This document shows, piece after piece, positions 11,373-25,933 of a stretch of DNA of 64,000 nucleotides (positions are counted from its first letter, which is position 1; every line of letters starts with the position of its first letter). This DNA comes from Gammaproteobacteria bacterium. GTDB lineage: Bacteria > Pseudomonadota > Gammaproteobacteria > Competibacterales > Competibacteraceae. Where the stretch lies: assembly GCA_046347515.1 (NCBI GenBank), contig JAXMFZ010000007.1:49859-113858 (forward strand), given 5' to 3'. Under the pieces are notes generated by a model. The model saw only the letters and a program-made list of their open reading frames with translations, searched no databases and was not told where the DNA came from. Both the position numbers and the translations under genes were made by a program.

Positions 11373-12395
11373 TCAGCCACCGGTGACGTTCATGTGGCGA
11401 AACAGCACGGGCTTGGCTTCGAGATTGAATTCATGCCCTTGTGGTTTGATGTCCATGGCTTTGATGATGGCCTGCTGCAATTTATCCATGTCGCCCGGAT
11501 GGGCGCGCATGACATGGCGCAAATCCACCGAATGTTCCTGGCCCAGGCAGAGCAGCAGGCGCCCTTCGGCCGTGACCCGCACGCGGTTGCAGGTATCACA
11601 AAAGTTGTGGCTGTGCGGCGAAATGAAACCGATCTTGGAATTGACACCCGGCACGCGGAAATATTTAGAGGGGCCACCGGTGCTTTCGGCGGTAGGGATG
11701 AGTTCGAAGTTGGTTGCCAAGTCGGTACGGATCTGGTCGCTGGAATAATAGGCCTCGGCGCGGTCGTGATCGCCGATCACGCCGAGCGGCATTTCCTCGA
11801 TGTAGCTGATGTCCATACTGTTATCGATGGCGAAGCGAGCAAGGCTCACGACTTCGTCATGATTGCGATTCTTGAGAATCACGGTGTTGAGCTTGATACG
11901 CTCGAACCCGGCTGTCTGCGCGGCGCGAATGCCCGCCATCACCTTGGCAAGGTCTCCCGTGCGGGTGATGCGCCGGAAACGCTCGGGGTCGAGGGTGTCG
12001 AGGCTGATATTGATGCGCTTGACGCCGGCATCGCGTAACTCCTGGGCATAGCGTTCGAGTTGGGAGCCGTTGGTGGTCAGCACCAGTTCTCTCAAGCCCG
12101 CTAGCTGCCCGAGTTGACGGAACAGCCAGAGCACGTTATTGCGCACCAGCGGTTCGCCGCCAGTAACGCGGATTTTACGCACACCCAATGCGCTGAATGC
12201 TTTGCCGACCAGGGCCAGTTCTTCCAGGGTCAGTACTTTGGCGCGGGGCAGGAAGGTCATGTCTTCGGCCATACAATACACGCAGCGAAAATCGCAGCGA
12301 TCGGTGACCGAGATGCGCACATACGTCACATGGCGCCCAAAGCGGTCGATCAACTTCACGCTGGGCGGGGTTTGTGGAATGTCGGCGGCATGCAC
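11373..12395 (-). CDS. moaA: GTP 3',8-cyclase (molybdenum cofactor biosynthesis protein A)
   Basis: Radical-SAM CDFRCVYC motif plus the C-terminal Cys cluster ([18 protein letters not shown]). GTG start at 12395. Confidence 0.9.
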
Positions 12396-12486
12396 GGTGT
12401 TGTCGTCCTCGCGTTCGCTCAGGTCGATGGCCTATCCGCTGGGGCGGTGAGCCATGGGCCTAGAGTAGGATGGAAATTCATCGAAG

Positions 12487-12810
12487 TTAGTGGTTGTGAT
12501 TCTCGCCCGTGGCGGCTTGGTAAGCCGCCTGTTGCGCCGGGCTGGCTTCTTTTTGATAGCGGGCTTTCCATTCCGAATAGGGCATGCCATAGACGATGGT
12601 ACGCGCTTCGTCGTCGCTCATGGCGATGCCCTTGTCGCTGGCGGCGGCGCGATACCATTTGCCCAGACAGTTACGGCAGAAACCCGCCAGATTCATGAGA
12701 TCGATGTTTTGCACATCGGTGCGATCGCGCAAGTGCGCGACCAGGCGACGAAACGCCGCCGCTTCCAATTCGGTGCGAGTTTGATCGTCCACGGCGAACT
12801 TCCTCCTCAA
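12487..12810 (-). CDS. DUF1244 family protein
   Basis: The 107-aa ORF has the conserved DUF1244 core (AAAFRRLVAHLRDRTDVQNIDLMNLAGFCRNCL). It is co-directional with and immediately upstream of moaA. Confidence 0.6.
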   Translation of the reverse strand: MRRKFAVDDQTRTELEAAAFRRLVAHLRDRTDVQNIDLMNLAGFCRNCLGKWYRAAASDKGIAMSDDEARTIVYGMPYSEWKARYQKEASPAQQAAYQAATGENHNH

Positions 12811-12895
12811 TCTATGACTGCCAACAAGGCCATCGATAGGATCCTATGATACGTGCCTTTAGCTTTCCCTGTGGCATAGTGCGAAGCGAGGTGCG

Positions 12896-13216
12896 CTAAT
12901 CGGCGTTTTGCGGGTCTTCCGCACGGGCGATGGCGCAACCGTAACCGAATTGATAGTCCTTGTGGAGTGGATGGATCCGCACGATATTGGCGGTGATCAC
13001 GATGGCTGGCTCAGCCGGATCGCTCGATTCGATCACCATTTGCAGTTCGGTGCCGATCGAGAGCTTTTGATCCGCCCAGATCATCGCTCCGGTTTCGCTC
13101 AGATTGTCCAGTTCACCTTCCGCATCCGCCATGATCCCTTTGATGTGGTAGTGGATTTTGCTGTTGATGGGAAGGCGCGAACTAATGCGGCGATCATCAT
13201 CTGTGGTGTCCATCAC
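12896..13216 (-). CDS. PilZ domain protein (c-di-GMP receptor)
   Basis: RRISSR (RxxxR) and DNLSETG (DxSxxG) c-di-GMP-binding motifs within a 106-aa ORF. Confidence 0.65.
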   Translation of the reverse strand: MMDTTDDDRRISSRLPINSKIHYHIKGIMADAEGELDNLSETGAMIWADQKLSIGTELQMVIESSDPAEPAIVITANIVRIHPLHKDYQFGYGCAIARAEDPQNAD

Positions 13217-13408
13217 TGCTCTCCGTGTTTCGTACGTCTCGAAATTTGCCCTACAAAGATTGCCTTGGCACGGTTAGCGACACAACCAACAAAGTCTGCC
13301 ATCCGTGCAGGTTTAGATTCCTTACTATTGAGACTTTACCACGCGCCAACCGTTCAAGCCAGGCTCTAGTCCCGACAAAATATTGAAGCTGAAGCCGGCG
13401 TCGAGAGC

Positions 13409-13435
13409 AAAAAAAAGCCCCTGCGGAGCAGGGGC
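13409..13435 (-). terminator. Rho-independent terminator, minus-strand orientation
   Basis: Hairpin GCCCCTGC-GGAG-CAGGGGC is preceded on the plus strand by eight A (eight T downstream when read on the minus strand). It lies about 270 nt downstream of the stop of the 954-aa gene. Confidence 0.5.
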
Positions 13436-13705
13436 CAAGAAGAGCTAGGAGGAGGTCATACGAAGAGTTGAGGTGCAGTTACTGATGCGCCGCTTTCCGT
13501 AGACGATTATTATATTGCATCAATGATGCCAAATAATTTATATTATTGAATTTATTAAAAATAAATAAAAAAGTAATAGTTCCATCGCCACCGACATGAC
13601 AATATCTGCGCATTTTGGACGGTTCAAGGCCATAGTGAACCGGCTCAAAATGGCCTATGAGCCGCTGCCATTAGTCGCGGTCCTATCGCCGTCTCAGAAT
13701 AATTC

Positions 13706-16570
13706 TTAAACCTCTGTTTTATTGAATAAAGGCGAGTCTTCCGCCGACAGGTCGGGTTCGCCGCAATAGCGCAGAATGGTGGCGCGGGCGCAATCACGCA
13801 GGGCGATCGCCGCACCCCAGTCTGCACCCGTCGGTTGAACGGATTCGCCCACGATAACCCTCAGCATTTCGCGGCGTGGAAACCAGGAATCGGCGCGCAG
13901 CATGGAGCGGGTGCCGCGCAGCGTCACCGGCACGACCAGCACTTGCGCCTGCGCGGCGGCTACGAACGCCCCCATGCGAAACGGCAGCAAGCCGGGCGTG
14001 CGTCCGAACGTGCCCTCGGGGAAAAACACCAGCGAGTCGCCAGCGCGCGCGGCCGCGGCGGCGCGTGCGCCATCCGCAGCGCTGCGGTGCGGATCGAAGC
14101 GTTCCACGAACAAGGTGCCGAAGCGTTCCAGCAAGAAACGCAACCAGGCAATGTCGGCGAGTTCACGCTTGGCGATGAAGCGCAAGCGGCGGGGCAGGGC
14201 TATGATCAGGATCAGGCTGTCCAGGTAGCTGGCGTGGTTGGCGACGAGCACACAAGGCGAAGCGTTGGGCAGGCGCTGCAATCCGTCAATCTGCAAATGG
14301 ATTCTCAGCAGACGCAGCGCCCAACGCCCCGCCGTGCGGCTGCCGCTCCAGCGCGCATGGGGCCAAGGCAGCAGCGCCAGCAAGCCGACGATCAGCGCGC
14401 ACGCACCAAACACCAGCCAGGCAAGCCCAGCGAACAGCGCCTCGCGCAGGTGGCGCCAGAACTTGCGCAGCGCGGGCTGGGTGCTTGCCAGCGCAAGCCC
14501 GGCGATCTGCCGCCACAGTGCGCGCTCGCTGCCCAATGCCTTGCGTTCATAGAGGTCGCGCACCGCGGAACGGCGGATTTTGCCGCTGGAGGTCTTCAGT
14601 ACGCTATGCGGTGGAGCGAGCACCACGTCGTCCGGGGCCATGCCGAGCACATCAAGTGCGGCATCGCGGATACGCGCTTGCAAGGCTTGTAAGGCCGCGG
14701 GGGCGCGTTCACGGGTCTCGGCGACGACGACCAACTGCTCGCCGCCGTCGGCTTTCCGGCTCGCGAACACCGCCACGCAACCTTTGCGCACGCCGGCAAT
14801 ATCACCCACCGCGAGTTCCAGCTCATAAGGATAGAAATTGCGCCCGCCGCGGATGATCATGTCTTTCATCCGCCCAGTGAGGTAAACATCGCCCGCGACG
14901 ATGAAAGCGCGGTCGCCCGAATTGAGCCAGGGGCCGGCGAACAACTGGGCGCTGGCCTCGGGGTTACGGAGATAGCCGATGGTCGCCGACGGCCCTTGGA
15001 ATTGCAGCAAACCCTCGCGGCGCTCGGGTAGTTCACGCCCCGCTTCATCGACGACACGTATCTGGTGGCCGGGCAATGCGTGTCCGCAAGCCACCGCTTC
15101 CAGGGCGTCGGGCTCGGCGGCGGTGGCAGGCACGGCTTGCCCGCTGCTCATGAAGCGACTGCGGCTGATGCGTTCCACTTTCAGCCCGCGTCCGGGCGCG
15201 GGTAATGCGAGTCCCACCGAGCATTCCGCCAAGCCGTAGACCGGCGCCAGTGCGGCGCTATCGAATCCGTAAGGATGGAAGCGCTCGGCGAAACGGCGCA
15301 TGGTGGTAGCGCTCACGGGCTCGGCGCCATTGAACGCGAACCGCCAGGAACTCAGATCCAACCCCTTGATGGCATCGTCCTGAACATTGCGCAGGCAGAG
15401 TTCGTAGGCGAAATTCGGCGCCGCCGACAGCGTGCCGCGATGACGGTGGATCGCCCATAGCCAACTGGACGGCTGGCGCAGGAACCGCAGCGGCGACATC
15501 ACTGCCAGCGGAATGCCGTGATACAAACTGCCCAGCCACGCGCCGATCAGCCCCATATCGTGGTAGAGCGGCAACCAACTGACGAATACATCGCTGGCGT
15601 TCAAGGCGATGCGATTGCCCATCGCCCGGATGTTGGCAAGCAGATTGGCGTGGCTGAGCATGACCCCTTTGGGGTCGCCGGTGCTGCCGGAAGTGTATTG
15701 CAGAAAAGCGATATCCGTCGGCTGCGCGTTGTGGTCGATTGCGGTGGCGATGGCGTGCGACAGTTCCGGGACGGTAGCGACATGGCGTAGCGTTTCCACC
15801 TGGGCGCGCAGCCAGTGGGCAACGGTCGCCGCTTCCGGCACCGTGATCAGCACCACGCTGCGGGCGCTGGTCAGGATGCGGGCGTGGCGCCGCAAATGCT
15901 CTTCGATCTGGGACGGGCGCAGTGGCGGATAAATCGGCACCGGTACGCCGCCGGCCAGCAGTATGCCGAAAAAGCTCGCGAAATAGTCGTGACCGGTAGG
16001 CAGCATGATGGCCACACTCTGGCCCGGTTCCAGGCCGCGCTCGCGCAATCCTGCCGCCAATGCACGGGCGTCTCGCTGGAGTGCGCCGTAGCTAATAGAC
16101 TCGCTTTGCTCGGTGTCGCCATAGAGGTGGATCGCGGTGCGATCTGGGTTGTGGTGGGCGTGCCAGGTCAAGACCTGAATCAGGGTGGTGGCGTGGCGAG
16201 GAAGCGCCTGCGCCGTTGGCGCTTGTGCGCCAGATTCATGGATACTGGCGACGCTGCCGGGGTCGGCGGCCGGCATTCCATGCGCCGCCAGCAGATCGCG
16301 CAAGAGTTCCCGCGGCGTTTCCGCGGTCAACGCCTGCTGCGGCAGGCTCAGGTGGAACGCGCGCTCGATCCGTTGCAACAGTTCGGCGCGCGTCAGACTG
16401 TCGAAGCCAAGGTCGCGTTCGAGTCGACTATCGAGGTGTAGTGGCGCGCTTGGCGGAGCTGGCGGGCGCGTTTCCAGCGCCAGTTCCGTAATGACTTGCA
16501 ACAGCGCAGCGGCGGAAGCAGCCTCCGGCGCGGTGCTCATGGCGGGCGCCGACGCGGCGTAGAGGGGCAC
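13706..16570 (-). CDS. Tri-domain fusion: N-terminal acyl-carrier (PP-binding) domain, fatty acyl-AMP ligase (AMP-binding) domain, transmembrane segment, C-terminal lysophospholipid acyltransferase (PlsC/LPLAT) domain
   Basis: Domain order and motifs are: a phosphopantetheine attachment motif (LGFDSLTRAELLQRIE); an AMP-binding core (LQYTSGSTGDPKGVMLSHANLLAN, ...YPYELE...); a hydrophobic stretch (LAWLVFGACALIVGLLALLPWP); then acyltransferase motifs NHASYLD (HX4D) and FFPEGTF. Confidence 0.8.
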   Translation of the reverse strand: MPLYAASAPAMSTAPEAASAAALLQVITELALETRPPAPPSAPLHLDSRLERDLGFDSLTRAELLQRIERAFHLSLPQQALTAETPRELLRDLLAAHGMPAADPGSVASIHESGAQAPTAQALPRHATTLIQVLTWHAHHNPDRTAIHLYGDTEQSESISYGALQRDARALAAGLRERGLEPGQSVAIMLPTGHDYFASFFGILLAGGVPVPIYPPLRPSQIEEHLRRHARILTSARSVVLITVPEAATVAHWLRAQVETLRHVATVPELSHAIATAIDHNAQPTDIAFLQYTSGSTGDPKGVMLSHANLLANIRAMGNRIALNASDVFVSWLPLYHDMGLIGAWLGSLYHGIPLAVMSPLRFLRQPSSWLWAIHRHRGTLSAAPNFAYELCLRNVQDDAIKGLDLSSWRFAFNGAEPVSATTMRRFAERFHPYGFDSAALAPVYGLAECSVGLALPAPGRGLKVERISRSRFMSSGQAVPATAAEPDALEAVACGHALPGHQIRVVDEAGRELPERREGLLQFQGPSATIGYLRNPEASAQLFAGPWLNSGDRAFIVAGDVYLTGRMKDMIIRGGRNFYPYELELAVGDIAGVRKGCVAVFASRKADGGEQLVVVAETRERAPAALQALQARIRDAALDVLGMAPDDVVLAPPHSVLKTSSGKIRRSAVRDLYERKALGSERALWRQIAGLALASTQPALRKFWRHLREALFAGLAWLVFGACALIVGLLALLPWPHARWSGSRTAGRWALRLLRIHLQIDGLQRLPNASPCVLVANHASYLDSLILIIALPRRLRFIAKRELADIAWLRFLLERFGTLFVERFDPHRSAADGARAAAAARAGDSLVFFPEGTFGRTPGLLPFRMGAFVAAAQAQVLVVPVTLRGTRSMLRADSWFPRREMLRVIVGESVQPTGADWGAAIALRDCARATILRYCGEPDLSAEDSPLFNKTEV

Positions 16571-16573
16571 GGC

Positions 16574-17851
16574 TCAACTGGGCGGGCGCGCGCCGTACAG
16601 ATGCTCACGGGTCAAGGGTATGTGGTTGTCGTCATAGCGATTGAACAGGACCTGAAACAGCTGCAATTCGCCTTGGCTGAAGGCCGCGATAGAGCCAGCC
16701 AGATATAGCCGCCAAGCGCGCACAAATTGAGCATCGAACATATTGCCGATCTGCTCGACATGCGCCTCGTAGCGCGCCAGCCAATGGCGCAGGGTTTCGG
16801 CGTAGTGCAGGCGCAGGTTCTCGACGTCGAGAATGGAAAAGCACCAAGGTTCGAACAAGTCCGCCATCTCGCTCAGAGCGGGAGGGTAAGCGCCGGGGAA
16901 GATGCGCTTCTCGATCCAGGCGTTCATCGGCGCCGGTCGATTGCGGCCAATGGAATGAATCAGCCCCCGGCCTTGCGGTTTCAGGCAACGGTCCATGACC
17001 GCACCGAGCGTGCGGTAATGCTTCAAGCCGACGTGTTCCAACATGCCGACCGACACGAAGACATCGAACTGGCCTTGGATCTCGCGATAATCCCCCTCGA
17101 TGTACTCGACTCTGTCGGCCATGCCCTCGCGGGAGGCGCGTTCGCGCGCATAAGCGAGCTGCTCTTTGGAGATGTTATAGGCTTTGACTCTGACCCCGTA
17201 ATGCTGGGCCATGTGCAGGGCGAGCGCGCCCCAGCCGCAGCCGGCCTCGACCACCTCATCGCCAGGTTGCAGGCGCAGTTTACGGCTGACGTGATCCATC
17301 TTGGCGATTTGCGCTTGTTCCAAGGTAGCACTGGCCGTGGGGAAATAAGCGCAGGTATAGAGCATTTGCGCGTCCAGCCACAGGCGGTAGAAATCGTTGC
17401 CGATATCGTAATGGTGGTAGATATTGTGGCGGGCGCGGGATAGCGTATTGCTACGCAGGAGATAAAGGCTGGACAAGAGTCGCGACCACCCCAGGGCCTT
17501 ATGTTTGGAACTGGCGCGGGTCACGGTTTCGATCAGGCTGAGCAAATCGCCGTCGACACGGACTCGGCCCGTCGTGTACAGCTCACCGAATTCGAGATCG
17601 GGATGGAACATCAAGCGCAATAGCGCATTGCGGTCGGCAATACGCAGCCGTGTGCACGGTTTGTCGGGCGTGACCTTGATTTCCTGACCATCCCAGAGTT
17701 CGACGCTGGCGGCGGGATTACCCGCAGCCAACAGAAATTTGCTCAATAGCCACTTTTCGATGGCGAGTGGTTTGCTGGCAGACGGTTCCAAGGCGTCCTG
17801 CGGTTTGTCATCCAAGGTTGCCAGGCCGAGGGGGGCCGCTTGGCGTTTCAT
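16574..17851 (-). CDS. Cyclopropane-fatty-acyl-phospholipid synthase family SAM-dependent methyltransferase
   Basis: The 425-aa ORF has SAM-binding motifs (VVEAGCGWGALALHMA, VFVSVGMLEHVG) and the Cfa-type C-terminal region. It is translationally adjacent to the fusion gene (stop 16574, next start 16570). Confidence 0.8.
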   Translation of the reverse strand: MKRQAAPLGLATLDDKPQDALEPSASKPLAIEKWLLSKFLLAAGNPAASVELWDGQEIKVTPDKPCTRLRIADRNALLRLMFHPDLEFGELYTTGRVRVDGDLLSLIETVTRASSKHKALGWSRLLSSLYLLRSNTLSRARHNIYHHYDIGNDFYRLWLDAQMLYTCAYFPTASATLEQAQIAKMDHVSRKLRLQPGDEVVEAGCGWGALALHMAQHYGVRVKAYNISKEQLAYARERASREGMADRVEYIEGDYREIQGQFDVFVSVGMLEHVGLKHYRTLGAVMDRCLKPQGRGLIHSIGRNRPAPMNAWIEKRIFPGAYPPALSEMADLFEPWCFSILDVENLRLHYAETLRHWLARYEAHVEQIGNMFDAQFVRAWRLYLAGSIAAFSQGELQLFQVLFNRYDDNHIPLTREHLYGARPPS

Positions 17852-18035
17852 TGCTCGATCTCCGCTACTAAGTTTTTCGTTTTCATTGTCCGCAAAGGGT
17901 ACAACTCAATATTAAAGCCAAATTGTAACCCATGGGGCGGCGAAGCAAACAGCGGCGGCTGCGCGCGGCGGTTTAATTGCGCGCAACCGCCCCTATATTA
18001 AACACCGAGCATTGTTACAATAGTGGTGGATTGCA

Positions 18036-18341
18036 ATGAGAGGCTGGATGATGAAGCGCTTGAACGTCACCGTGCGGTATTGGCTGATGCGTATTCTTGC
18101 GGCCCTGATCGCGGTGCTTGGATTGGTGGCGGTGTTTGCACTGTCGGCTTTTATCCTGTCGCTGTTTCTGGTGCTCGCCGCCGCTGCCAGCATCTGGTTG
18201 GTTTGGCAGCGCTGGCGCGGAATGCGTTACCGCCGCTCGAACTCGAGCGCCATCATGAATGTCGAGTACGAAGTGTTGGACGAAAATGGGCGGCGTTCTT
18301 GGCGTGTGGGTAAATTTCATACAGGCCGCTCGTCCGATTGA
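18036..18341 (+). CDS. Small membrane protein, hypothetical
   Basis: The 101-aa ORF has two hydrophobic helices (ILAALIAVLGLVAVFALSAFILSLFLVLAAAASIWLV). No recognised family. Confidence 0.4.
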   Translation: MRGWMMKRLNVTVRYWLMRILAALIAVLGLVAVFALSAFILSLFLVLAAAASIWLVWQRWRGMRYRRSNSSAIMNVEYEVLDENGRRSWRVGKFHTGRSSD

Positions 18342-18368
18342 TATCTACGGTTTTTTTGGGGATTCATT

Positions 18369-19466
18369 ATGATGCTTGCAAAGTATATGCGCTCGGCTTG
18401 GATGGCGGGTGCGCTGGCGGGTTTTATCCTGGGATTTGTGCCCGTCTCATGGGCCGGCGATCAACCGGCGCCGGCCGCGCCCGCCAACGCCGATGAGGCG
18501 CCGGCCAAGAGAATGCCAGCGCCACTGGATCCGGCCACCAAGGAGGCGCTGATCACCTATACCCAAGGCTTGGCGGCTTTGAACAACGGTAATACGGACA
18601 AAGCCATAGAGCTATTGAAGAAAGCGATTATCCTGAAACCCCTCAATCCGCAGTTCCATATGCAATTGGCGCGTGCTTACCAGCAGGCGGGTAAGCCGCA
18701 GGGCAGGTGGTTGGAGTTGCGCAAAACCGTGGGTCTGGACCCCAAACATGCAGAGGCGCTTGCAGAATTCCAACAGATGTGGCAGGTGGCGGGTGCCAAG
18801 GGCGCGTTGGATGTCGGCACGACCATGGATAAGATAAAAGCCGGCTTGGGCGACCCCGACGCGCAACAGAGTGAAGGCGATCGGGCGCGTTGGCAGTACG
18901 GCTTCATGATGATTGATTTCCTGGGCGGTAAGCTTGATTCCGTGTCCGATTTGCGTGGGTTGGAGGCGCTCAAACCAGCCGCCGAAGTGCTAGAGTTCAG
19001 CCTCGGCGGTGGCGAGTGGCAGATCAAACAGCGCAGCTACAGTCGTACCGAGAATTTGCTCGAGTATCGGACGCCCGACACCGCCCAAGTCCAGCAACGG
19101 ATTGCTGTGCAACGCTTGGCCGGGCTCAAAAAGTCATTCAGCGCCAAGCAATTGATGGAAAAAATGGAAGCCAATCTGAAGCAACAGTTTCCAGACGCGA
19201 CCTGGCAGGTATTGCGCGCTGGCGACGATGACCTGCTCTACGAATGGCGACTGGGCGGCGAGGGCAAGCCCGGGGAGCATGAAATCACCCGGCTCATGAG
19301 TGGCGCCGAAGACATCCATCGCTTGAGCTATAGCGCCAAAGTCGCGCAGCTCGGGGACGAGGAGCGCAAACGCTGGATCGCGCTGCTGGAGCAGGCCAAA
19401 CTGGTGGCCGAGCCACTGCCGGCCGCGCCGGCCCAGCCGCCTGCTAGCAATGCGCCGAAGCAGTGA
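18369..19466 (+). CDS. Secreted TPR-repeat protein, hypothetical
   Basis: Signal peptide (MMLAKYMRSAWMAGALAGFILGFVPVSWA), a TPR-like region (AIELLKKAIILKPLNPQFHMQLARAYQQAG) and a Pro/Ala-rich C-terminus. Confidence 0.55.
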   Translation: MMLAKYMRSAWMAGALAGFILGFVPVSWAGDQPAPAAPANADEAPAKRMPAPLDPATKEALITYTQGLAALNNGNTDKAIELLKKAIILKPLNPQFHMQLARAYQQAGKPQGRWLELRKTVGLDPKHAEALAEFQQMWQVAGAKGALDVGTTMDKIKAGLGDPDAQQSEGDRARWQYGFMMIDFLGGKLDSVSDLRGLEALKPAAEVLEFSLGGGEWQIKQRSYSRTENLLEYRTPDTAQVQQRIAVQRLAGLKKSFSAKQLMEKMEANLKQQFPDATWQVLRAGDDDLLYEWRLGGEGKPGEHEITRLMSGAEDIHRLSYSAKVAQLGDEERKRWIALLEQAKLVAEPLPAAPAQPPASNAPKQ

Positions 19467-19484: not shown

Positions 19485-20460
19485 TCAGCGCGGGTCGCCG
19501 ATGAGGACGGTGGTTTCCAATTGGTGGGTGTTGACCGGCCGATACGGAAGGCGGCCGGCATAGAGCTCGTTCAGGTAGCGCGCGAGCTTCACGATGGTCG
19601 GGCCATAGCCCTTCGAGTACATCAGCATTTCCAAGGCCGTACACATCTCGCTGGCGCTGGCGTAGCGGTCGGCGGGATAAGGCGCCAGGCTTTTGTTGAG
19701 GATATCGAGCATTTCCGGCGGAATATCGGGGCGGTAGCTGAGCGGATCGAGTTCGAGGCCGTGGCAGCTCGCCTCGAAGCGATTGGTCTTGGTGAGTAAT
19801 TCGAAATAGACCAAGCCCAGGCTGTAGAGGTCGCTGCGTTCATCGGTGCGGTGGGCTGCCGCTTGCTCGGGTGAACGGTAGGCTTTCTTTCCCACCAGAT
19901 ATGAGCCCTCTAGGCTGCCCATGTAATTCTTGACCTTGGCGACGCCGAAATCGGTCAGTTTCACCTCGCCTTCCCGGTTGATCATGACATTGTTCGGGCA
20001 CACGTCGCGGTGGACGATCCCCAGCAGCTTGCCGTTGCGGTCGCGTTTGTTATGGGCGTACTCCAGACCCCGACACACACGGCTCACGATGAAGCTTGCG
20101 AGATCTGCCGGAATCGGACGATCGAGTTCGCGGTGACGCTGGATGAAATCGGCCACGGTGACGCCTTCGATGTATTCCATGGCGATGAAATAGCCGTCGT
20201 CGTAGCGGTCGAATTGATAGATCTGCACGATATTCGGATGGACGAGGTCGGCGACCAGCTTGGCTTCTTCGATGAACAATTCGACGAAAATCGGTGTGCG
20301 CGAGAGTTGCGGCAACAGCGTCTTCAGTGCGAGCGTTTTGACGAAGCCCTCGGCGCCGTATTGTTCAGCCTCGTAAACCGTTCCCATGCCGCCGGAGGCG
20401 ATCTTGCGCTTCAAGTGATAGCATGTGTGAGTACGGATGGAACGGATCGCTTCGCTCATA
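19485..20460 (-). CDS. Serine/threonine protein kinase (Hanks-type)
   Basis: Gly-rich loop (GGMGTVYEA), catalytic loop (HRDVCPNNVM), DFG motif and SPE motif. Start taken at MSEAIRSI; the longer N-terminal extension in the ORF track is not kinase-like. Confidence 0.75.
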
Positions 20461-20643
20461 ATCGACAGGTTTCCTGGCTCCGAGAACGGGTTGTCGCGGT
20501 CGGGTGATCTCCGCAGTGCGATTCGCATGTTTTGCCCAATATTATACTGGCAAGCTGGGCGCGCCTCACAGCGCCAGCCGCAACGGGAATTGCGGCCAGC
20601 CTGGCGCAGACCGAGCGACGACGCCCCGGCTGTTGTAGGATAA

Positions 20644-21690
<1,047 letters not shown>

Positions 21691-22527: not shown

Positions 22528-24978
22528 TCAACACTGGCTAAAGTTGTAGCTCATCTCCGCCAGCGGCTTTTGCAACACATAGCCTTGCACGAATTTGATC
22601 CCGCTCGACCAGAGCGTGGGTAAGGTATGCAAATCTTCGACACCTGAAGCGACCGGTGCTATACCCAACTTATCCAGGCTGCGTGCGAGTGCCGACAATT
22701 GTTTGGCGGCGACGCTCTTGGGGCTGTGTAGGTCCTGGAGGAGATGGGTGTCGAGCTTGACGTAGCTGATCATCAAGCCTTCGAGCATCGTCAGTGAATC
22801 CAGGCGCTGGCCGAAGCGCTCCAGTGAAAAGCCGCAACCCAAGGCTTTCAAATGGTTGACGAAGGCTCGAAATTTATCCGAGTGACACCGCGCGGTATCT
22901 TCGGAGACTTCGAAGATCAATGAGCACCCTGCTATGCCGGCTTTATCCATACTCTCCTTGAGCCAGGCCGGGAAATCACCGTCCTCGATGGTTGCCAGCG
23001 TGATGTTGACGAAGAGTGTCGTTTGCTGCTGTGCCTCCCTGCGTGCGCGTAGCTCCTGCAGGCATTGGATGATCACCCAGCGATCCAGATACGCACCCAG
23101 GCGGTGTTGCTGGATGGCTTTGAATACGGTTTCAGGAAACAAATCGTGGTTTTGTTCGTCCTTCAGCCGCAATAGCGCTTCGTAGCGCTGATTGGATTCG
23201 TCCAGGCCGACGATCGGCTGGAACGACAGCTCCATGCGCGCGTGCTTGATCGCATCGGCAATGCGACCGACCAGTGCTTGTTGGGAAGCGGCGGTGGCCT
23301 GCTGGTCGCGCTCGGCCAGGTACAAATGGATGCCACTGTCGCGGTTATTGCGCGCCAGCGCGCACGCTGATTCGGCTTGCTGGATGAGGTCGAAATGATC
23401 GCGCTCGCCGGGCGCGGCTGCGCTGATGCCGACGCAAGCCTGGAGTCGCACGCTTTGCGCGCCTTTGCTATACATATACACGACTTCGTGCAACTGCTTG
23501 CGGATGTTCTGTGCGACGGTCTGTAATTTGCCGACATCGGCGGTTTTCACGAATACCATGAAGCAAGCATCGCCAAAACGGGCGATGGGGGCTGCGGCGC
23601 CCAGCACTCTATGCAGGCAATTGCCGGCCTTGGCTACGCTGTCGTCGGCGGTGGCGAAGTCGGTGGCCTCACGCAGCGCCTGCAAATTGTCGATCGCGAT
23701 CATGAGCACGGCGACGCGCATACCGTCGTCGCTGGATGCCAGGACGCGCTCCAACTGATTCATGAAATAGCGGCGATTGAAAAATCCGCTCAGCGGGTCT
23801 TCATTGCGCAGGGCGCTGAGTTTGGTGCCCACTGCTCGGCTACGCCGCAGGCGCTGGAGTACGGTCCAGCCCAGGTGCTCGGCATTGACCGGCTTGGTAA
23901 GAACGTCATCGGCGATGCCAGCGAGAGCAGCGAGATTACGCTCGAAATGGTGCTCTTGACACAGCGCCAGCATCGGCAGTGCGTAGCAGCTCTGGTGCTG
24001 GCGCAACGCCTTGAAGAGTTCCAGGCTATTGACCGTTTTCAGATCGATATCGATGATCAGAATTTCGGGCTGGAAATCCTTGATGGTTTCCAGGACCCGC
24101 AGCGGGCGGCTTACCACCGTGGTGTTAATGCCGCTGTGTTCCAGGGCGTTGGACAAGCGCTGTGATTCGAATGGATCGTCATGCACGATGAGGGCGCGCT
24201 TGGCGCCTTCGTCCGCCGGATTGAACAGCAGCTTGTCGAGTTTCTCGACCAAGGCGCGGGTGTCGACCGGCCGGGTGAAATAGCCCTTGCCGCCCGCTTG
24301 GATGGCGGCGAGGCGGGTGGTGATGTCTTCTTGGTTGGCGATGAAAAACACAGGGATGATCAGTTCCAGCCGCTCACGCAACCGATTCACCATGTGGATG
24401 CCTGCTTGCGGGCCTTCGGGCTGATCCGCCTGGACGATGAGCGCGAGCGGATAGTGTTTCTGCAACTGCGCTTCGGCGGCCGCCAGGCTGTGCAGTGGCC
24501 GCACCCGAAAACCGGCGCGCTCGAGGTGGTTCGGCAGATCGGCAGGAAGCTCGGAGCCGACTACAAAAATTTCTTCGACTTGGAGCAGGTTTTTGGGTGC
24601 TAGCGGCACGGATTGCGCACTCGCGGCTGCGATCAGGTCGGCGTTGACGAAGCTGAAACGCACTTGCTCCAGCAACGCGCGTAGCCGTGCCCGTTGCGCG
24701 GGCTGCAGATCGCGTCCCGACGCCAAGCATACCTTGGCGTGATTGGCGAGTTGGAATGCAAGCTGAGCCTGTTCCGGGTAGTGGCCGAGTCGCTGCACGA
24801 GTTTGCCAAGTGATTCAGCCAAACCGACCAATTGCGTGACGGCGTCTGGCCGGGGGTCGGTATTGAGGTTGGCGATGTATTGCCAAAGTTTTTCGAGGAT
24901 TTCCAGTTTTTCGGCAAGTTGCTCGCGGTAGTCATCTTGCGCGGGTGGTTCCATTATGGCGACGACTTTATTCATCAT
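22528..24978 (-). CDS. Signalling protein with tandem receiver-like domains plus GGDEF and EAL domains (c-di-GMP turnover)
   Basis: The 817-aa ORF has REC-like regions (ALIVHDDPFESQRL..., EILIIDIDL...), a GGDEF region (RRYFMNQLERV...GDACFMVF...) and an EAL region (ELSFQPIV...YEALLRL..., ...FEVSE..., ...IKFVQGYV...). Confidence 0.8.
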   Translation of the reverse strand: MMNKVVAIMEPPAQDDYREQLAEKLEILEKLWQYIANLNTDPRPDAVTQLVGLAESLGKLVQRLGHYPEQAQLAFQLANHAKVCLASGRDLQPAQRARLRALLEQVRFSFVNADLIAAASAQSVPLAPKNLLQVEEIFVVGSELPADLPNHLERAGFRVRPLHSLAAAEAQLQKHYPLALIVQADQPEGPQAGIHMVNRLRERLELIIPVFFIANQEDITTRLAAIQAGGKGYFTRPVDTRALVEKLDKLLFNPADEGAKRALIVHDDPFESQRLSNALEHSGINTTVVSRPLRVLETIKDFQPEILIIDIDLKTVNSLELFKALRQHQSCYALPMLALCQEHHFERNLAALAGIADDVLTKPVNAEHLGWTVLQRLRRSRAVGTKLSALRNEDPLSGFFNRRYFMNQLERVLASSDDGMRVAVLMIAIDNLQALREATDFATADDSVAKAGNCLHRVLGAAAPIARFGDACFMVFVKTADVGKLQTVAQNIRKQLHEVVYMYSKGAQSVRLQACVGISAAAPGERDHFDLIQQAESACALARNNRDSGIHLYLAERDQQATAASQQALVGRIADAIKHARMELSFQPIVGLDESNQRYEALLRLKDEQNHDLFPETVFKAIQQHRLGAYLDRWVIIQCLQELRARREAQQQTTLFVNITLATIEDGDFPAWLKESMDKAGIAGCSLIFEVSEDTARCHSDKFRAFVNHLKALGCGFSLERFGQRLDSLTMLEGLMISYVKLDTHLLQDLHSPKSVAAKQLSALARSLDKLGIAPVASGVEDLHTLPTLWSSGIKFVQGYVLQKPLAEMSYNFSQC

Positions 24979-25045
24979 AGTCCTTCTCGCGTGGTGTCTT
25001 CCATACGAAATTCGGTGGTAGTGCAAAAAAAATGTACAGCGCTGC

Positions 25046-25933
25046 TCACTCCAAACCCGGCCGCGCGCGTTCCAGCAACAAGCCATCCGCTGTTTGCCGG
25101 AACCGGGTCTGGAGTAAAAAACTCATGCCAAGCAGAACCGTATCCTTAGGCGCGGGCACCAAGGCTGCTTCGACGTCATAGAGCACGATGGGGCCGAGTT
25201 TGATGGCATCAACAATCGTTTGGCGGGCGACCGCTTCGCCAGTGGCGGTGTTGACCGGGAAAGAACGGCCCGCTTGCAGACCCAGATCCTTGCGCAGATG
25301 CGAGGGAATCATGACCATGGTGGCGCCGGTGTCGATCAAGGCTTCTACCGGCAGACCATTGAGCCAGATCTGCGTTACGTAATGGCCGCGGCTGTCGCGT
25401 GGGATGACGATGTTATGCTCGGGTTCGCCCTCGCCGCGCAACACGATGCGCTCGGCGACGGTGGAAGGAAGATGGGTGCGCAGGCTGAGCGCCAACGCTT
25501 CGGCGTAGCCCACGAATTGCGATTGGCGCCACGCCAGTCGGTCGGGTAGCACGGTATGGTGGGCGAGCACGACGATGAGGGTAATGACCAGCATCCCGCG
25601 CAACGCGCCGAACAACAGGCCGAGCAATGGGTCGTGGCCACCCCAGCGCGTGTGTTCATGCACGCGTCGCAACTTGCGATCCGCGGCGGCAAGCAGAGTT
25701 GCGGTTACCAGCACGACCAGAAAAGCGACTACCCAGGCTCGTAGCACTTCGTCGGGCACCAGGTTGCGCAACCAGGTGCTGAAGTATTCGTAATTGACCA
25801 GTGCGAGTCCGCCCGCCAGCACCCATACGACTAACGACATCATTTCACGCAATATGCCGCGGCTAAGCCCGGTCGCCGTCGCCACCGCCAGCAACACTGC
25901 AATCATGAGGTCGATCAGCAAGCCATCGTACAT
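25046..25933 (-). CDS. Fusion of a CvpA-family membrane domain and a retropepsin-like (clan AA, TIGR02281-type) aspartic protease domain
   Basis: The N-terminal 160 aa has four predicted helices typical of CvpA. The C-terminal domain carries the DTGAT catalytic motif (ALIDTGATMVMIP) and a retropepsin fold signature. Confidence 0.65.
   Translation of the reverse strand: MYDGLLIDLMIAVLLAVATATGLSRGILREMMSLVVWVLAGGLALVNYEYFSTWLRNLVPDEVLRAWVVAFLVVLVTATLLAAADRKLRRVHEHTRWGGHDPLLGLLFGALRGMLVITLIVVLAHHTVLPDRLAWRQSQFVGYAEALALSLRTHLPSTVAERIVLRGEGEPEHNIVIPRDSRGHYVTQIWLNGLPVEALIDTGATMVMIPSHLRKDLGLQAGRSFPVNTATGEAVARQTIVDAIKLGPIVLYDVEAALVPAPKDTVLLGMSFLLQTRFRQTADGLLLERARPGLE

Follow-up and report, generated by a model that had tools for sequence, protein, structure and literature searches.

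What is the role of a protein that joins, in one chain, an acyl carrier domain, a domain activating fatty acids and an acyltransferase of the phospholipid type, and does it work together with the methyltransferase encoded just upstream of it? The question is raised by two genes of a 64-kb stretch of DNA, hereafter the window, from a Competibacteraceae gammaproteobacterium (contig JAXMFZ010000007.1, assembly GCA_046347515.1). Starting from what can be observed, namely the domain identities, the intact catalytic residues, the type of adenylation domain, the gene order and the distribution of both genes, we read the fusion protein, with moderate confidence, as a membrane-anchored, self-contained lipid re-acylation enzyme, similar to Aas, independent of coenzyme A (CoA), and co-expressed with an acyl-chain methyltransferase. 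The two genes and the parts of the fusion protein (FAAL, fatty acyl-AMP ligase; LPLAT, lysophospholipid acyltransferase; ACP, acyl carrier protein; SAM, S-adenosylmethionine) are listed below.

16574..17851, minus strand: gene for a CMAS-family SAM methyltransferase (TmpB/Cfa-like), 425 aa, ATG start
13706..16570, minus strand: gene for the carrier-FAAL-anchor-LPLAT fusion, 954 aa from a GTG start, 944 aa from the ATG of Met11
16283..16531, minus strand: N-terminal acyl carrier domain, residues ~14-96 (Pfam PP-binding, weak NCBIfam ACP matches)
16397-16399, minus strand: codon of the predicted phosphopantetheine-bearing Ser58, in the DSL motif (LGFDSLTRAEL)
14969..16168, minus strand: large (N-terminal) adenylation subdomain of the FAAL, residues 135-534 (Pfam AMP-binding)
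15122..15208, minus strand: FAAL-specific insertion, ~residues 455-483, LPAPGRGLKVERISRSRFMSSGQAVPATA, absent from a FadD-like acyl-CoA ligase
14534..14863, minus strand: small (C-terminal) subdomain of the FAAL, residues 570-679 (FAAL models and structures align to ~678)
14579-14581, minus strand: codon of the catalytic Lys664, invariant in the family
14357..14440, minus strand: hydrophobic segment, probable membrane anchor, residues ~711-738, hydropathy peak 2.65
13919..14296, minus strand: PlsC/LPLAT acyltransferase core, residues 759-884 (Pfam PF01553)

Both open reading frames (ORFs) were found on the minus strand exactly where a preliminary description of the window had placed them, and they are translationally adjacent, as it stated. 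The stop of the methyltransferase gene lies 3 nt before the GTG start of the fusion gene, or 33 nt before the ATG of Met11. The NCBI copy of the fusion protein, P0001 ('AMP-binding protein', Gammaproteobacteria bacterium), has 944 aa and is otherwise identical, meaning that its start was set at Met11.

Pfam searches of the fusion protein detected three domains, each above its gathering cut-off and with E-values far beyond chance: PP-binding (PF00550, residues 43-91, 34.6 bits for a cut-off of 20.8), AMP-binding (residues 135-534, 248.9 bits) and Acyltransferase (PF01553, residues 759-884, 98 bits for a cut-off of 23). The preliminary description had proposed a three-domain fusion with DSL, HX4D and FPEGT motifs, arranged differently from E. 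coli Aas. All three motifs are present, the profiles it had suggested (PF00550, PF00501 and PF01553 for the fusion, PF02353 for the partner) all matched, and the order, carrier, adenylation domain, anchor, LPLAT, is indeed not that of Aas. An AlphaFold2 model was computed for the fusion protein (mean pLDDT 76, pTM 0.59, with disordered linkers) and was not used for the geometry between domains. The carrier region is modelled as a four-helix bundle (helices 14-34, 58-72, 78-82 and 86-96), in which Ser58 opens the second helix. This serine is invariant in the 55 family members aligned, 30 close and 25 diverse.

In the adenylation domain, the core motifs of ANL enzymes are all found (TSGSTGDPK at 293, YGLAE at 445, SGD at 551, and SSGK with Lys664). 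The A5 to A7 spacing, from YGLAE to SGD, is 106 residues, compared to 80 in a FadD-like ligase encoded at L077:6078-7853, and in a pairwise alignment with the latter about 26 extra residues face a gap. Spacing was 105-110 in all family members where the motifs were located. The best full-domain NCBIfam model was the FAAL model PRK09192 (412 bits), followed by FadD32 (282 bits), Aas-type models reaching at most 200 bits; all these FAAL and Aas matches fall below whole-protein cut-offs. Sequence searches of the PDB pointed in the same direction. FAALs matched in a single stretch with E-values up to 1e-65, the leading ones being 7r7g (Synechococcus olefin synthase), 3pbk (E. coli) and 3kxw (Legionella pneumophila), at 1e-92 to 1e-84, together with FadD32, whereas CoA ligases matched at 1e-31 or weaker, split in two stretches. 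Foldseek comparison of the model with the PDB gave the same ranking, with FAALs or related loading domains in the top 30 positions. All 50 PDB fold matches listed are to a FAAL or adenylation domain, and none of these structures joins such a domain to an LPLAT. Because the insertion is present and the nearest neighbours, both in sequence and in predicted fold, are FAALs, the domain is best classified as a FAAL, rather than as an acyl-CoA ligase or an Aas-type acyl-ACP synthetase. FAALs load holo-carrier protein in place of CoA (PMC8460268).

Between the ligase and the acyltransferase lies the single strong hydrophobic segment of the protein, bordered by Arg, Lys and His on both sides; the model has helices at 685-731 and 737-754 around it. 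The alignment with Thermotoga maritima PlsC (5kym) begins just after this segment, at chain residue 53, and the segment is probably the equivalent of the membrane-embedded N-terminal helices of PlsC. On account of the basic residues on both sides and of this position, we infer that the anchor is monotopic or re-entrant, not spanning, which is the weakest structural point of our reading.

The acyltransferase domain itself has its HX4D motif at His779/Asp784 (NHASYLD, 778-784) and FPEGT at 850-854 (FFPEGT, 849-854). Its only PDB sequence match is T. maritima PlsC 5kym (E 8e-14). Among domain models, TIGR00530, for generic 1-acylglycerol-3-phosphate acyltransferases (AGPATs), came closest with 95.7 bits, ahead of PRK08633 (the LPLAT part of LplT-Aas) with 82.6 and OlsA models with 62.8 and 53.3. 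Membership in a specific AGPAT family did not follow from these scores, TIGR00530 being under its cut-off of 102.95 and the E. coli PlsC model PRK15018 reaching 34.3 for a cut-off of 501.

We asked how common this architecture is. In an exhaustive HMMER search covering 1.84 billion cluster representatives, well over 100 clusters at 50% identity matched over the full length, with sizes of about 910-1000 aa and identities down to ~35%. Seven longer members that were scanned had the same three Pfam domains and no other. Ser58, the P-loop, Lys664, His779, Asp784 and Glu852 were invariant in 25 members sharing 33-50% identity with the query, and this invariance in all three domains means that the three activities are under selection together. 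A scan of GTDB with one genome per species placed the fusion gene in Gamma-, Beta- and Alphaproteobacteria, Desulfobacterota, Acidobacteriota, Actinomycetota and Nitrospirota, as well as in Planctomycetota, Gemmatimonadota, Entotheonella and Bdellovibrionota. Cultured carriers include Thiocystis violacea, Methylocystis sp. JAN1, Paraburkholderia phenoliruptrix, Mesorhizobium delmotii, Halospina denitrificans, Photobacterium minamisatsumaniensis and Malikia granosa.

Database names of the family proteins are solely 'AMP-binding protein' or '1-acyl-sn-glycerol-3-phosphate acyltransferase'. The preliminary description had seen in the two genes a candidate for an under-characterised system; the architecture has not gone unnoticed. 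A survey of FAALs lists a fusion 'with lysophospholipid acyltransferases' as an uncharacterised 'unique domain organization' (PMC8460268), an 'LPAT_AGPAT_like' context of FAALs is mentioned elsewhere (PMC12820801), and 'ElbD-like homologues lacking FAR1' were reported in other phyla (PMC9131029). We regard the fusion as a so far uncharacterised variant of the combination of an adenylate-forming enzyme, a carrier and an LPLAT, whose architecture had already been noticed in surveys. Some database gene calls start late and omit the carrier domain, as in L087:4001-6724 (P0115), and several family proteins are listed without PF00550. At L087, query residue 23 is where the tblastn match begins, ~100 nt ahead of the called start. 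Such late calls mean that survey counts of the three-domain architecture are underestimates.

To find partners of the fusion gene, ORFs within 3-5 kb of it were clustered by BLASTP, in 82 and then in 167 loci. No widely conserved partner gene emerged across the 167 loci, which fits a self-sufficient enzyme acting on common metabolites. The commonest neighbours were an ATG22/UMF1-type major facilitator superfamily (MFS) transporter (17/167), a second AMP-binding ligase (14/167) and a FimV_N protein (9/167), the latter limited to the Competibacter clade. The ATG22/UMF1-type gene (PF11700, 183 bits; for instance L047:4318-5610) lies at a median distance of ~60-110 nt. Such a neighbour recalls the lplT-aas pairing, with a different MFS family, and at L087 an MFS_1 gene stands directly downstream of the fusion.

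The pair formed with the methyltransferase gene was then searched with tblastn, using the methyltransferase of the window and counting as informative, among GTDB loci, those with at least 1.5 kb of upstream sequence. An adjacent cfa-like gene was found in none of 67 informative GTDB loci (of 80), the one remote CMAS match, at L060, being 3 kb off and on the opposite strand. None was found either in 48 informative metagenome loci (of 80). The fusion gene is thus normally a stand-alone module. With the closest homologs of either protein as starting points, six loci nevertheless have the methyltransferase gene followed by the fusion on the same strand: the window, L004, L087, L089, L091 and L092. 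Their fusion proteins are ~52-60% identical and all their flanking genes differ. The gap between the two genes is 3-17 nt in the window, L004 and L091, and ~170-200 nt in L089 and L092. Four Competibacter-type loci (L001, L085, L086 and L088) have the fusion without the methyltransferase, and L090 has a close homolog of the methyltransferase without the fusion. When the fusion proteins are placed on a neighbour-joining tree, the unpaired Competibacter clade is surrounded by a grade made up of the six paired loci, a topology that fits a single ancestral origin followed by loss. Pairing therefore looks confined to one Competibacteraceae-like gammaproteobacterial clade and ancestral there. Its retention at ~52-60% identity amid shuffled flanks argues for some selective link, rather than for an obligatory two-component system. 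The earlier proposal of a two-gene lipid operon, judged by the test of conserved adjacency that came with it, holds within this clade and fails across the family. The pairing is lineage-specific, and no description of it was found in the literature.

Two of the paired loci have a glutathione peroxidase (GSHPx) gene just downstream of the fusion, on the opposite strand (L089:9908-10387 and L092:9416-9889), with a methionine sulfoxide reductase not far away in L089; this may hint at an oxidative-stress or lipid-repair context, or be a coincidence. In the unpaired Competibacter sub-clade, the gene of a large protein with a FimV_N domain always precedes the fusion in divergent orientation, at the position held by the methyltransferase in paired loci (for example L001:5817-7838, L086:1473-3842 and L088:1843-3870).

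Within the window, operon structure is supported by the 3-nt gap, by the lack of a strong terminator between the methyltransferase and fusion genes in a terminator consensus scan, and by a strong hairpin after the second gene. The signals read around the unit are:

17860..17863, minus strand: Shine-Dalgarno-like GGAG, 8 nt upstream of the methyltransferase ATG, as read from the sequence
13416..13436, minus strand: GC-rich hairpin (9-bp stem, 7 GC pairs) with T8 after it, likely the intrinsic terminator at the end of the two-gene unit

The hairpin lies ~270 nt past the stop codon of the fusion gene, and the bases following its stem in the consensus scan are TTTTTTTT. A sigma-70 promoter scan of 12800-18400 returned zero sites. 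The sole Rfam match in 12400-18500 at E <= 1 was a chance miRNA.

We next turned to the methyltransferase. Pfam detected CMAS (PF02353, 278.6 bits) and an N-terminal DUF7884 (PF25371, 31.1 bits), the composition of a full-length, two-domain enzyme of the kind that acts on phospholipids; they are located as follows.

17510..17743, minus strand: DUF7884 N-terminal domain, residues 37-114, corresponding to the N-domain of full-length cyclopropane fatty acid (CFA) synthases
16649..17440, minus strand: CMAS/SAM-methyltransferase catalytic domain, residues 138-401 (Pfam)

Alignments to the full-length structures 7qos, 5z9o and 6bqc span the DUF7884 region. In the alignment with 6bqc, Cys, Glu, His, Ile and Tyr are kept at the positions of E. 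coli C139, E239, H266, I268 and Y317, which we take to be the bicarbonate-binding residues of CFA synthase. These residues are conserved in the methylene-forming BfaB and TmpB as well (PMC7791843), and for this reason a call of cyclopropane synthase based on them was rejected.

The partner was below all NCBIfam Cfa equivalog cut-offs (NF053839, 339.5 bits for 600; CfaB, 285.5 for 650; PRK11705, 283.9 for 400), and it scored 192-257 bits against solved CFA synthases. With the TmpB sequences given in Additional file 3 of PMC7791843, from which the TmpA queries were also taken, it was 61% identical to TmpB of Thiohalospira halophila (389 aa, 484 bits), 54% to that of Marinobacter hydrocarbonoclasticus (445 bits), and 33% to those of Desulfobacter and Desulfobacula. 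The T. halophila and M. hydrocarbonoclasticus enzymes yield 10-methylene palmitate in E. coli (PMC7791843). Judged by these comparisons, the partner is closer to TmpB than to the solved cyclopropane synthases. Of the preliminary suggestion that a Cfa-family partner could methylate or cyclopropanate the chain, the family assignment stands; cyclopropanation is not the default, because the characterised TmpB enzymes are nearer. The product could be a 10-methylene, a 10-methyl (with a reductase encoded elsewhere) or a cyclopropane chain, and it is not assignable from the sequence. A tblastn search with two TmpA queries found no TmpA homolog in the paired loci or anywhere in the 64 kb of the window; L173, L174 and L060 did match.

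At L173 and L174, partner homologs (61-62% identity) are followed by a geranylgeranyl-reductase-like flavoprotein, an arrangement corresponding to tmpB-tmpA, the 'ten-methyl-palmitate' operon described by Blitzblau et al. (PMC7791843). These pairs (L173:4001-6410 and L174:4001-6398), whose TmpA is 52-56% identical to validated TmpA, belong to a Sulfuricella-like metagenome-assembled genome (MAG) and a gammaproteobacterial MAG. L060 also has a tmpA-CMAS pair (L060:4175-6221, minus strand), 2-3 kb upstream of the fusion gene.

How might the two proteins act? We propose that the FAAL domain would adenylate a free fatty acid with ATP. Since the adenylation domain is a FAAL, no acyl handover to CoA is expected, and the acyl group would be loaded onto the phosphopantetheine arm of the fusion's own carrier, at Ser58. 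The PlsC-like domain, which the hydrophobic segment would keep on the cytoplasmic side of the inner membrane, would then use its His779/Asp784 dyad to move the acyl chain onto a lyso-lipid hydroxyl. As acceptor, a lysophospholipid or 1-acyl-glycerol-3-phosphate (LPA) is the most likely, given the generic AGPAT and Aas-type similarity of the domain and the lack of pathway neighbours. The net effect would be that free fatty acids are salvaged into membrane lipid without CoA, as repair or remodelling. The TmpB/Cfa-type enzyme, for its part, would add one carbon, taken from SAM, across the cis double bond of unsaturated chains bound in phospholipid, with a 10-methylene or a cyclopropane chain as the product, and in the Competibacteraceae-like lineage the two genes would be co-transcribed as an acyl-chain editing unit. 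The methyltransferase and the fusion are probably co-expressed as acyl-chain editing functions in the paired clade. Since the fusion stands alone almost everywhere else, the link would consist of co-expression and a shared substrate pool, rather than of an obligatory pathway. A self-contained module that activates, tethers and transfers the acyl chain had been put forward in the preliminary description; with every catalytic residue conserved across the diverse family, this is the natural reading, in which loading in cis is a predicted step; the acceptor, the membrane topology and a possible coupling with the methyltransferase are likewise predictions.

Several points weigh against this scheme. 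Our literature search met no experimentally characterised carrier-FAAL-LPLAT protein, only passing bioinformatic mentions. A carrier N-terminal to the adenylation domain is atypical, and with low-confidence linkers and a pTM of 0.59 in the model, the reach of the carrier to the other domains is a presumption. If the anchor truly spans the membrane, the LPLAT would be periplasmic and beyond reach of the carrier. The acyl acceptor is not readable from the sequence, with TIGR00530 below its cut-off and OlsA-type models matching too. Finally, none of the 115 informative loci outside the clade has the pair, and within the clade it is missing from the nested Competibacter sub-clade.

This last point, together with the L090 methyltransferase homolog that stands without the fusion, is also what speaks for an adjacency devoid of functional meaning, two independent housekeeping membrane genes having become neighbours by chance in one lineage. 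Six loci keeping order and strand while all flanks differ speak against chance, as does the spacing of 3 nt without a terminator in the window, and we consider such an accident somewhat unlikely. Another rival is a tailoring of the chain on the carrier in the paired clade, the TmpB-like enzyme methylating the tethered chain before the LPLAT installs it. ACP-bound chains are thought to be the substrates of mycolic-acid methyltransferases, tight pairs (3-17 nt; window, L004 and L091) are kept across deep divergence with changing flanks, and at L173 and L174 the slot downstream of a tmpB-like gene, filled by tmpA, serves a functional partner. We find this mechanism very improbable all the same: both genes usually occur without each other, the gap widens to ~170-200 nt in L089 and L092, the partner keeps the DUF7884 typical of phospholipid-acting CFA synthases, and its closest characterised relatives act on phospholipid-bound chains (PMC7791843).

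Alternatively, the fusion may be a dedicated enzyme for a specialised lipid, esterifying a particular acid to a non-phospholipid acceptor such as a lyso-aminolipid (as OlsA does), a glycolipid, diacylglycerol or an intermediate of an ElbD-like route. FAALs classically feed acids into specialised products (PMC8460268, PMC11837247), ElbD joins an acyl-CoA synthetase (ACS), a carrier, an AGPAT and a reductase for ether lipids (PMC9131029, PMC9426513), and the family occurs in lipid-rich lineages (Acidobacteriota, Entotheonella, Planctomycetota). The OlsA lyso-ornithine-lipid acyltransferase models do match the LPLAT domain, but they are outscored by generic AGPAT and Aas-type LPLAT models. Specialised pathways usually cluster, and no conserved biosynthetic neighbours were seen in the 167 loci, nor was any reductase or tailoring domain present in a scanned member. 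On this evidence we regard a dedicated enzyme as unlikely. Our preferred reading, lipid re-acylation from the fusion's own carrier, can also be pushed further, to a widespread route for fatty acids into membrane lipid that is free of CoA and of the ACP of type II fatty acid synthesis (FASII), and that is mechanistically coupled to the TmpB-like enzyme in the lineage of the window. A salvaged unsaturated chain would then be installed and made methylene, methyl or cyclopropane, or be modified on the carrier, and the fusion would do in a single protein what Aas/LplT or FakAB-PlsX/Y do. We hold this stronger version to be doubtful.

Comparison with known systems helps to place the fusion. Like E. 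coli Aas (2-acylglycerophosphoethanolamine acyltransferase/acyl-ACP synthetase), it has an ANL adenylating domain and a PlsC-family LPLAT in one polypeptide. Aas first makes its own acyl-ACP, the acyl group passing via a phosphopantetheine thioester to a lysophospholipid, and bacterial PlsC and Aas acyltransferase domains take acyl-ACP donors (PMC11416262). The differences are that in Aas the LPLAT precedes the synthetase, the reverse of the order seen here, that Aas uses free cellular ACP instead of an N-terminally fused carrier, and that the adenylation domain of the fusion belongs to the FAAL clade (412 bits with the FAAL model versus 200 with PRK08633) and has the FAAL insertion. Aas is moreover peripheral, with no predicted transmembrane helix (PMC11416262), whereas the fusion has a hydrophobic anchor. 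Scores with whole-protein Aas models were far below cut-off (PRK08043, 36 bits for 886; PRK08633, ~200 for 1221), and no gene for the flippase LplT was found among the neighbours of the fusion in the window.

ElbD of Myxococcus xanthus likewise unites acyl-activating, carrier and AGPAT-like acyltransferase parts in a protein of lipid synthesis. In vitro work demonstrated ACS and ACP activities for ElbD (PMC9131029), and its domains are described as a reductase followed by synthetase, thiolation and acyltransferase domains (PMC9426513). The reductase, of the FAR type, is N-terminal, the gene belongs to the elbA-E cluster, and the protein was purified in soluble form; set against these descriptions of ElbD only, the fusion differs by having no reductase, a carrier placed before the adenylation domain, a membrane anchor and no elb neighbours. 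Pfam found no NAD-binding or reductase domain in the fusion or in the seven longer members scanned. With FAAL and FAAL-ACP loading modules, the fusion shares its best sequence and fold matches, over ~130-678, and the logic of adenylating an acid and then loading a carrier (PMC8460268). Known FAALs pass their product to a polyketide synthase (PKS), a non-ribosomal peptide synthetase (NRPS) or a separate ACP, and where a carrier is fused to them it comes after the FAAL; in the present protein the carrier comes first, and the partner behind the FAAL is an LPLAT. T. maritima PlsC (5KYM) has in common with the last domain the HX4D and FPEG motifs, the PF01553 fold and hydrophobic helices ahead of the catalytic core, but it stands alone, with ~250 aa, and takes its acyl group from free acyl-ACP or acyl-CoA, and the domain of the window is under the TIGR00530 cut-off. 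As for the methyltransferase, set beside the TmpB/TmpA, BfaB/BfaA and Cfa systems, it has the two-domain layout and the bicarbonate-site residues of CFA synthases; the next gene is tmpA in tmpBA operons and the fusion gene in the window.

Recycling of fatty acids into phospholipid allows bypass of inhibitors of fatty acid synthesis, repair of phospholipase damage and retuning of membrane fluidity. The known routes are FadD with PlsB/C, Aas/LplT, AasS and FakAB-PlsX/Y. If our reading is true, a one-polypeptide, CoA-independent route would add to these, with more than 100 clusters at 50% identity in many phyla, and FAALs would gain a role in primary metabolism outside PKS and NRPS, of the kind flagged as unexplained in recent FAAL surveys. 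The chemistry of the fusion is predictable from known parts, and the framing as a two-gene system holds only locally. Being self-contained, the protein lends itself to direct tests, in vitro as well as through expression in E. coli. Should the partner be a TmpB that lacks a TmpA, 10-methylene or 10-methyl C16 lipids may be made by these uncultured gammaproteobacteria of the wastewater type; 10-methyl C16 is in use as a lipid biomarker.

The genes flanking the pair in the window are unrelated to lipid metabolism: PilZ, DUF1244, MoaA and ThiF/MoeB genes downstream, and a small membrane ORF, a tetratricopeptide repeat (TPR) protein and a Ser/Thr kinase upstream. The ~490 nt between the fusion and PilZ genes (13217-13705) contain neither a convincing ORF nor an Rfam match, and GC content is lower around them (0.556 in 12001-14000, compared to ~0.61 elsewhere in the window). 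The segment from the terminator of the lipid unit to moaA encodes a 106-aa stand-alone PilZ-domain protein (12896-13216, minus strand) and a DUF1244 protein (12487-12810, minus strand). On the other side, divergent from the methyltransferase gene, is a hydrophobic ORF of 101 aa without Pfam match (18036-18341, plus strand), followed by the TPR protein (18369-19466, plus strand, 365 aa), whose N-terminal hydrophobic stretch could be a signal peptide. The Ser/Thr protein kinase gene lies at 19485-20690 (minus strand), and a GGDEF-EAL response regulator is encoded at 22528-25086 (minus strand).

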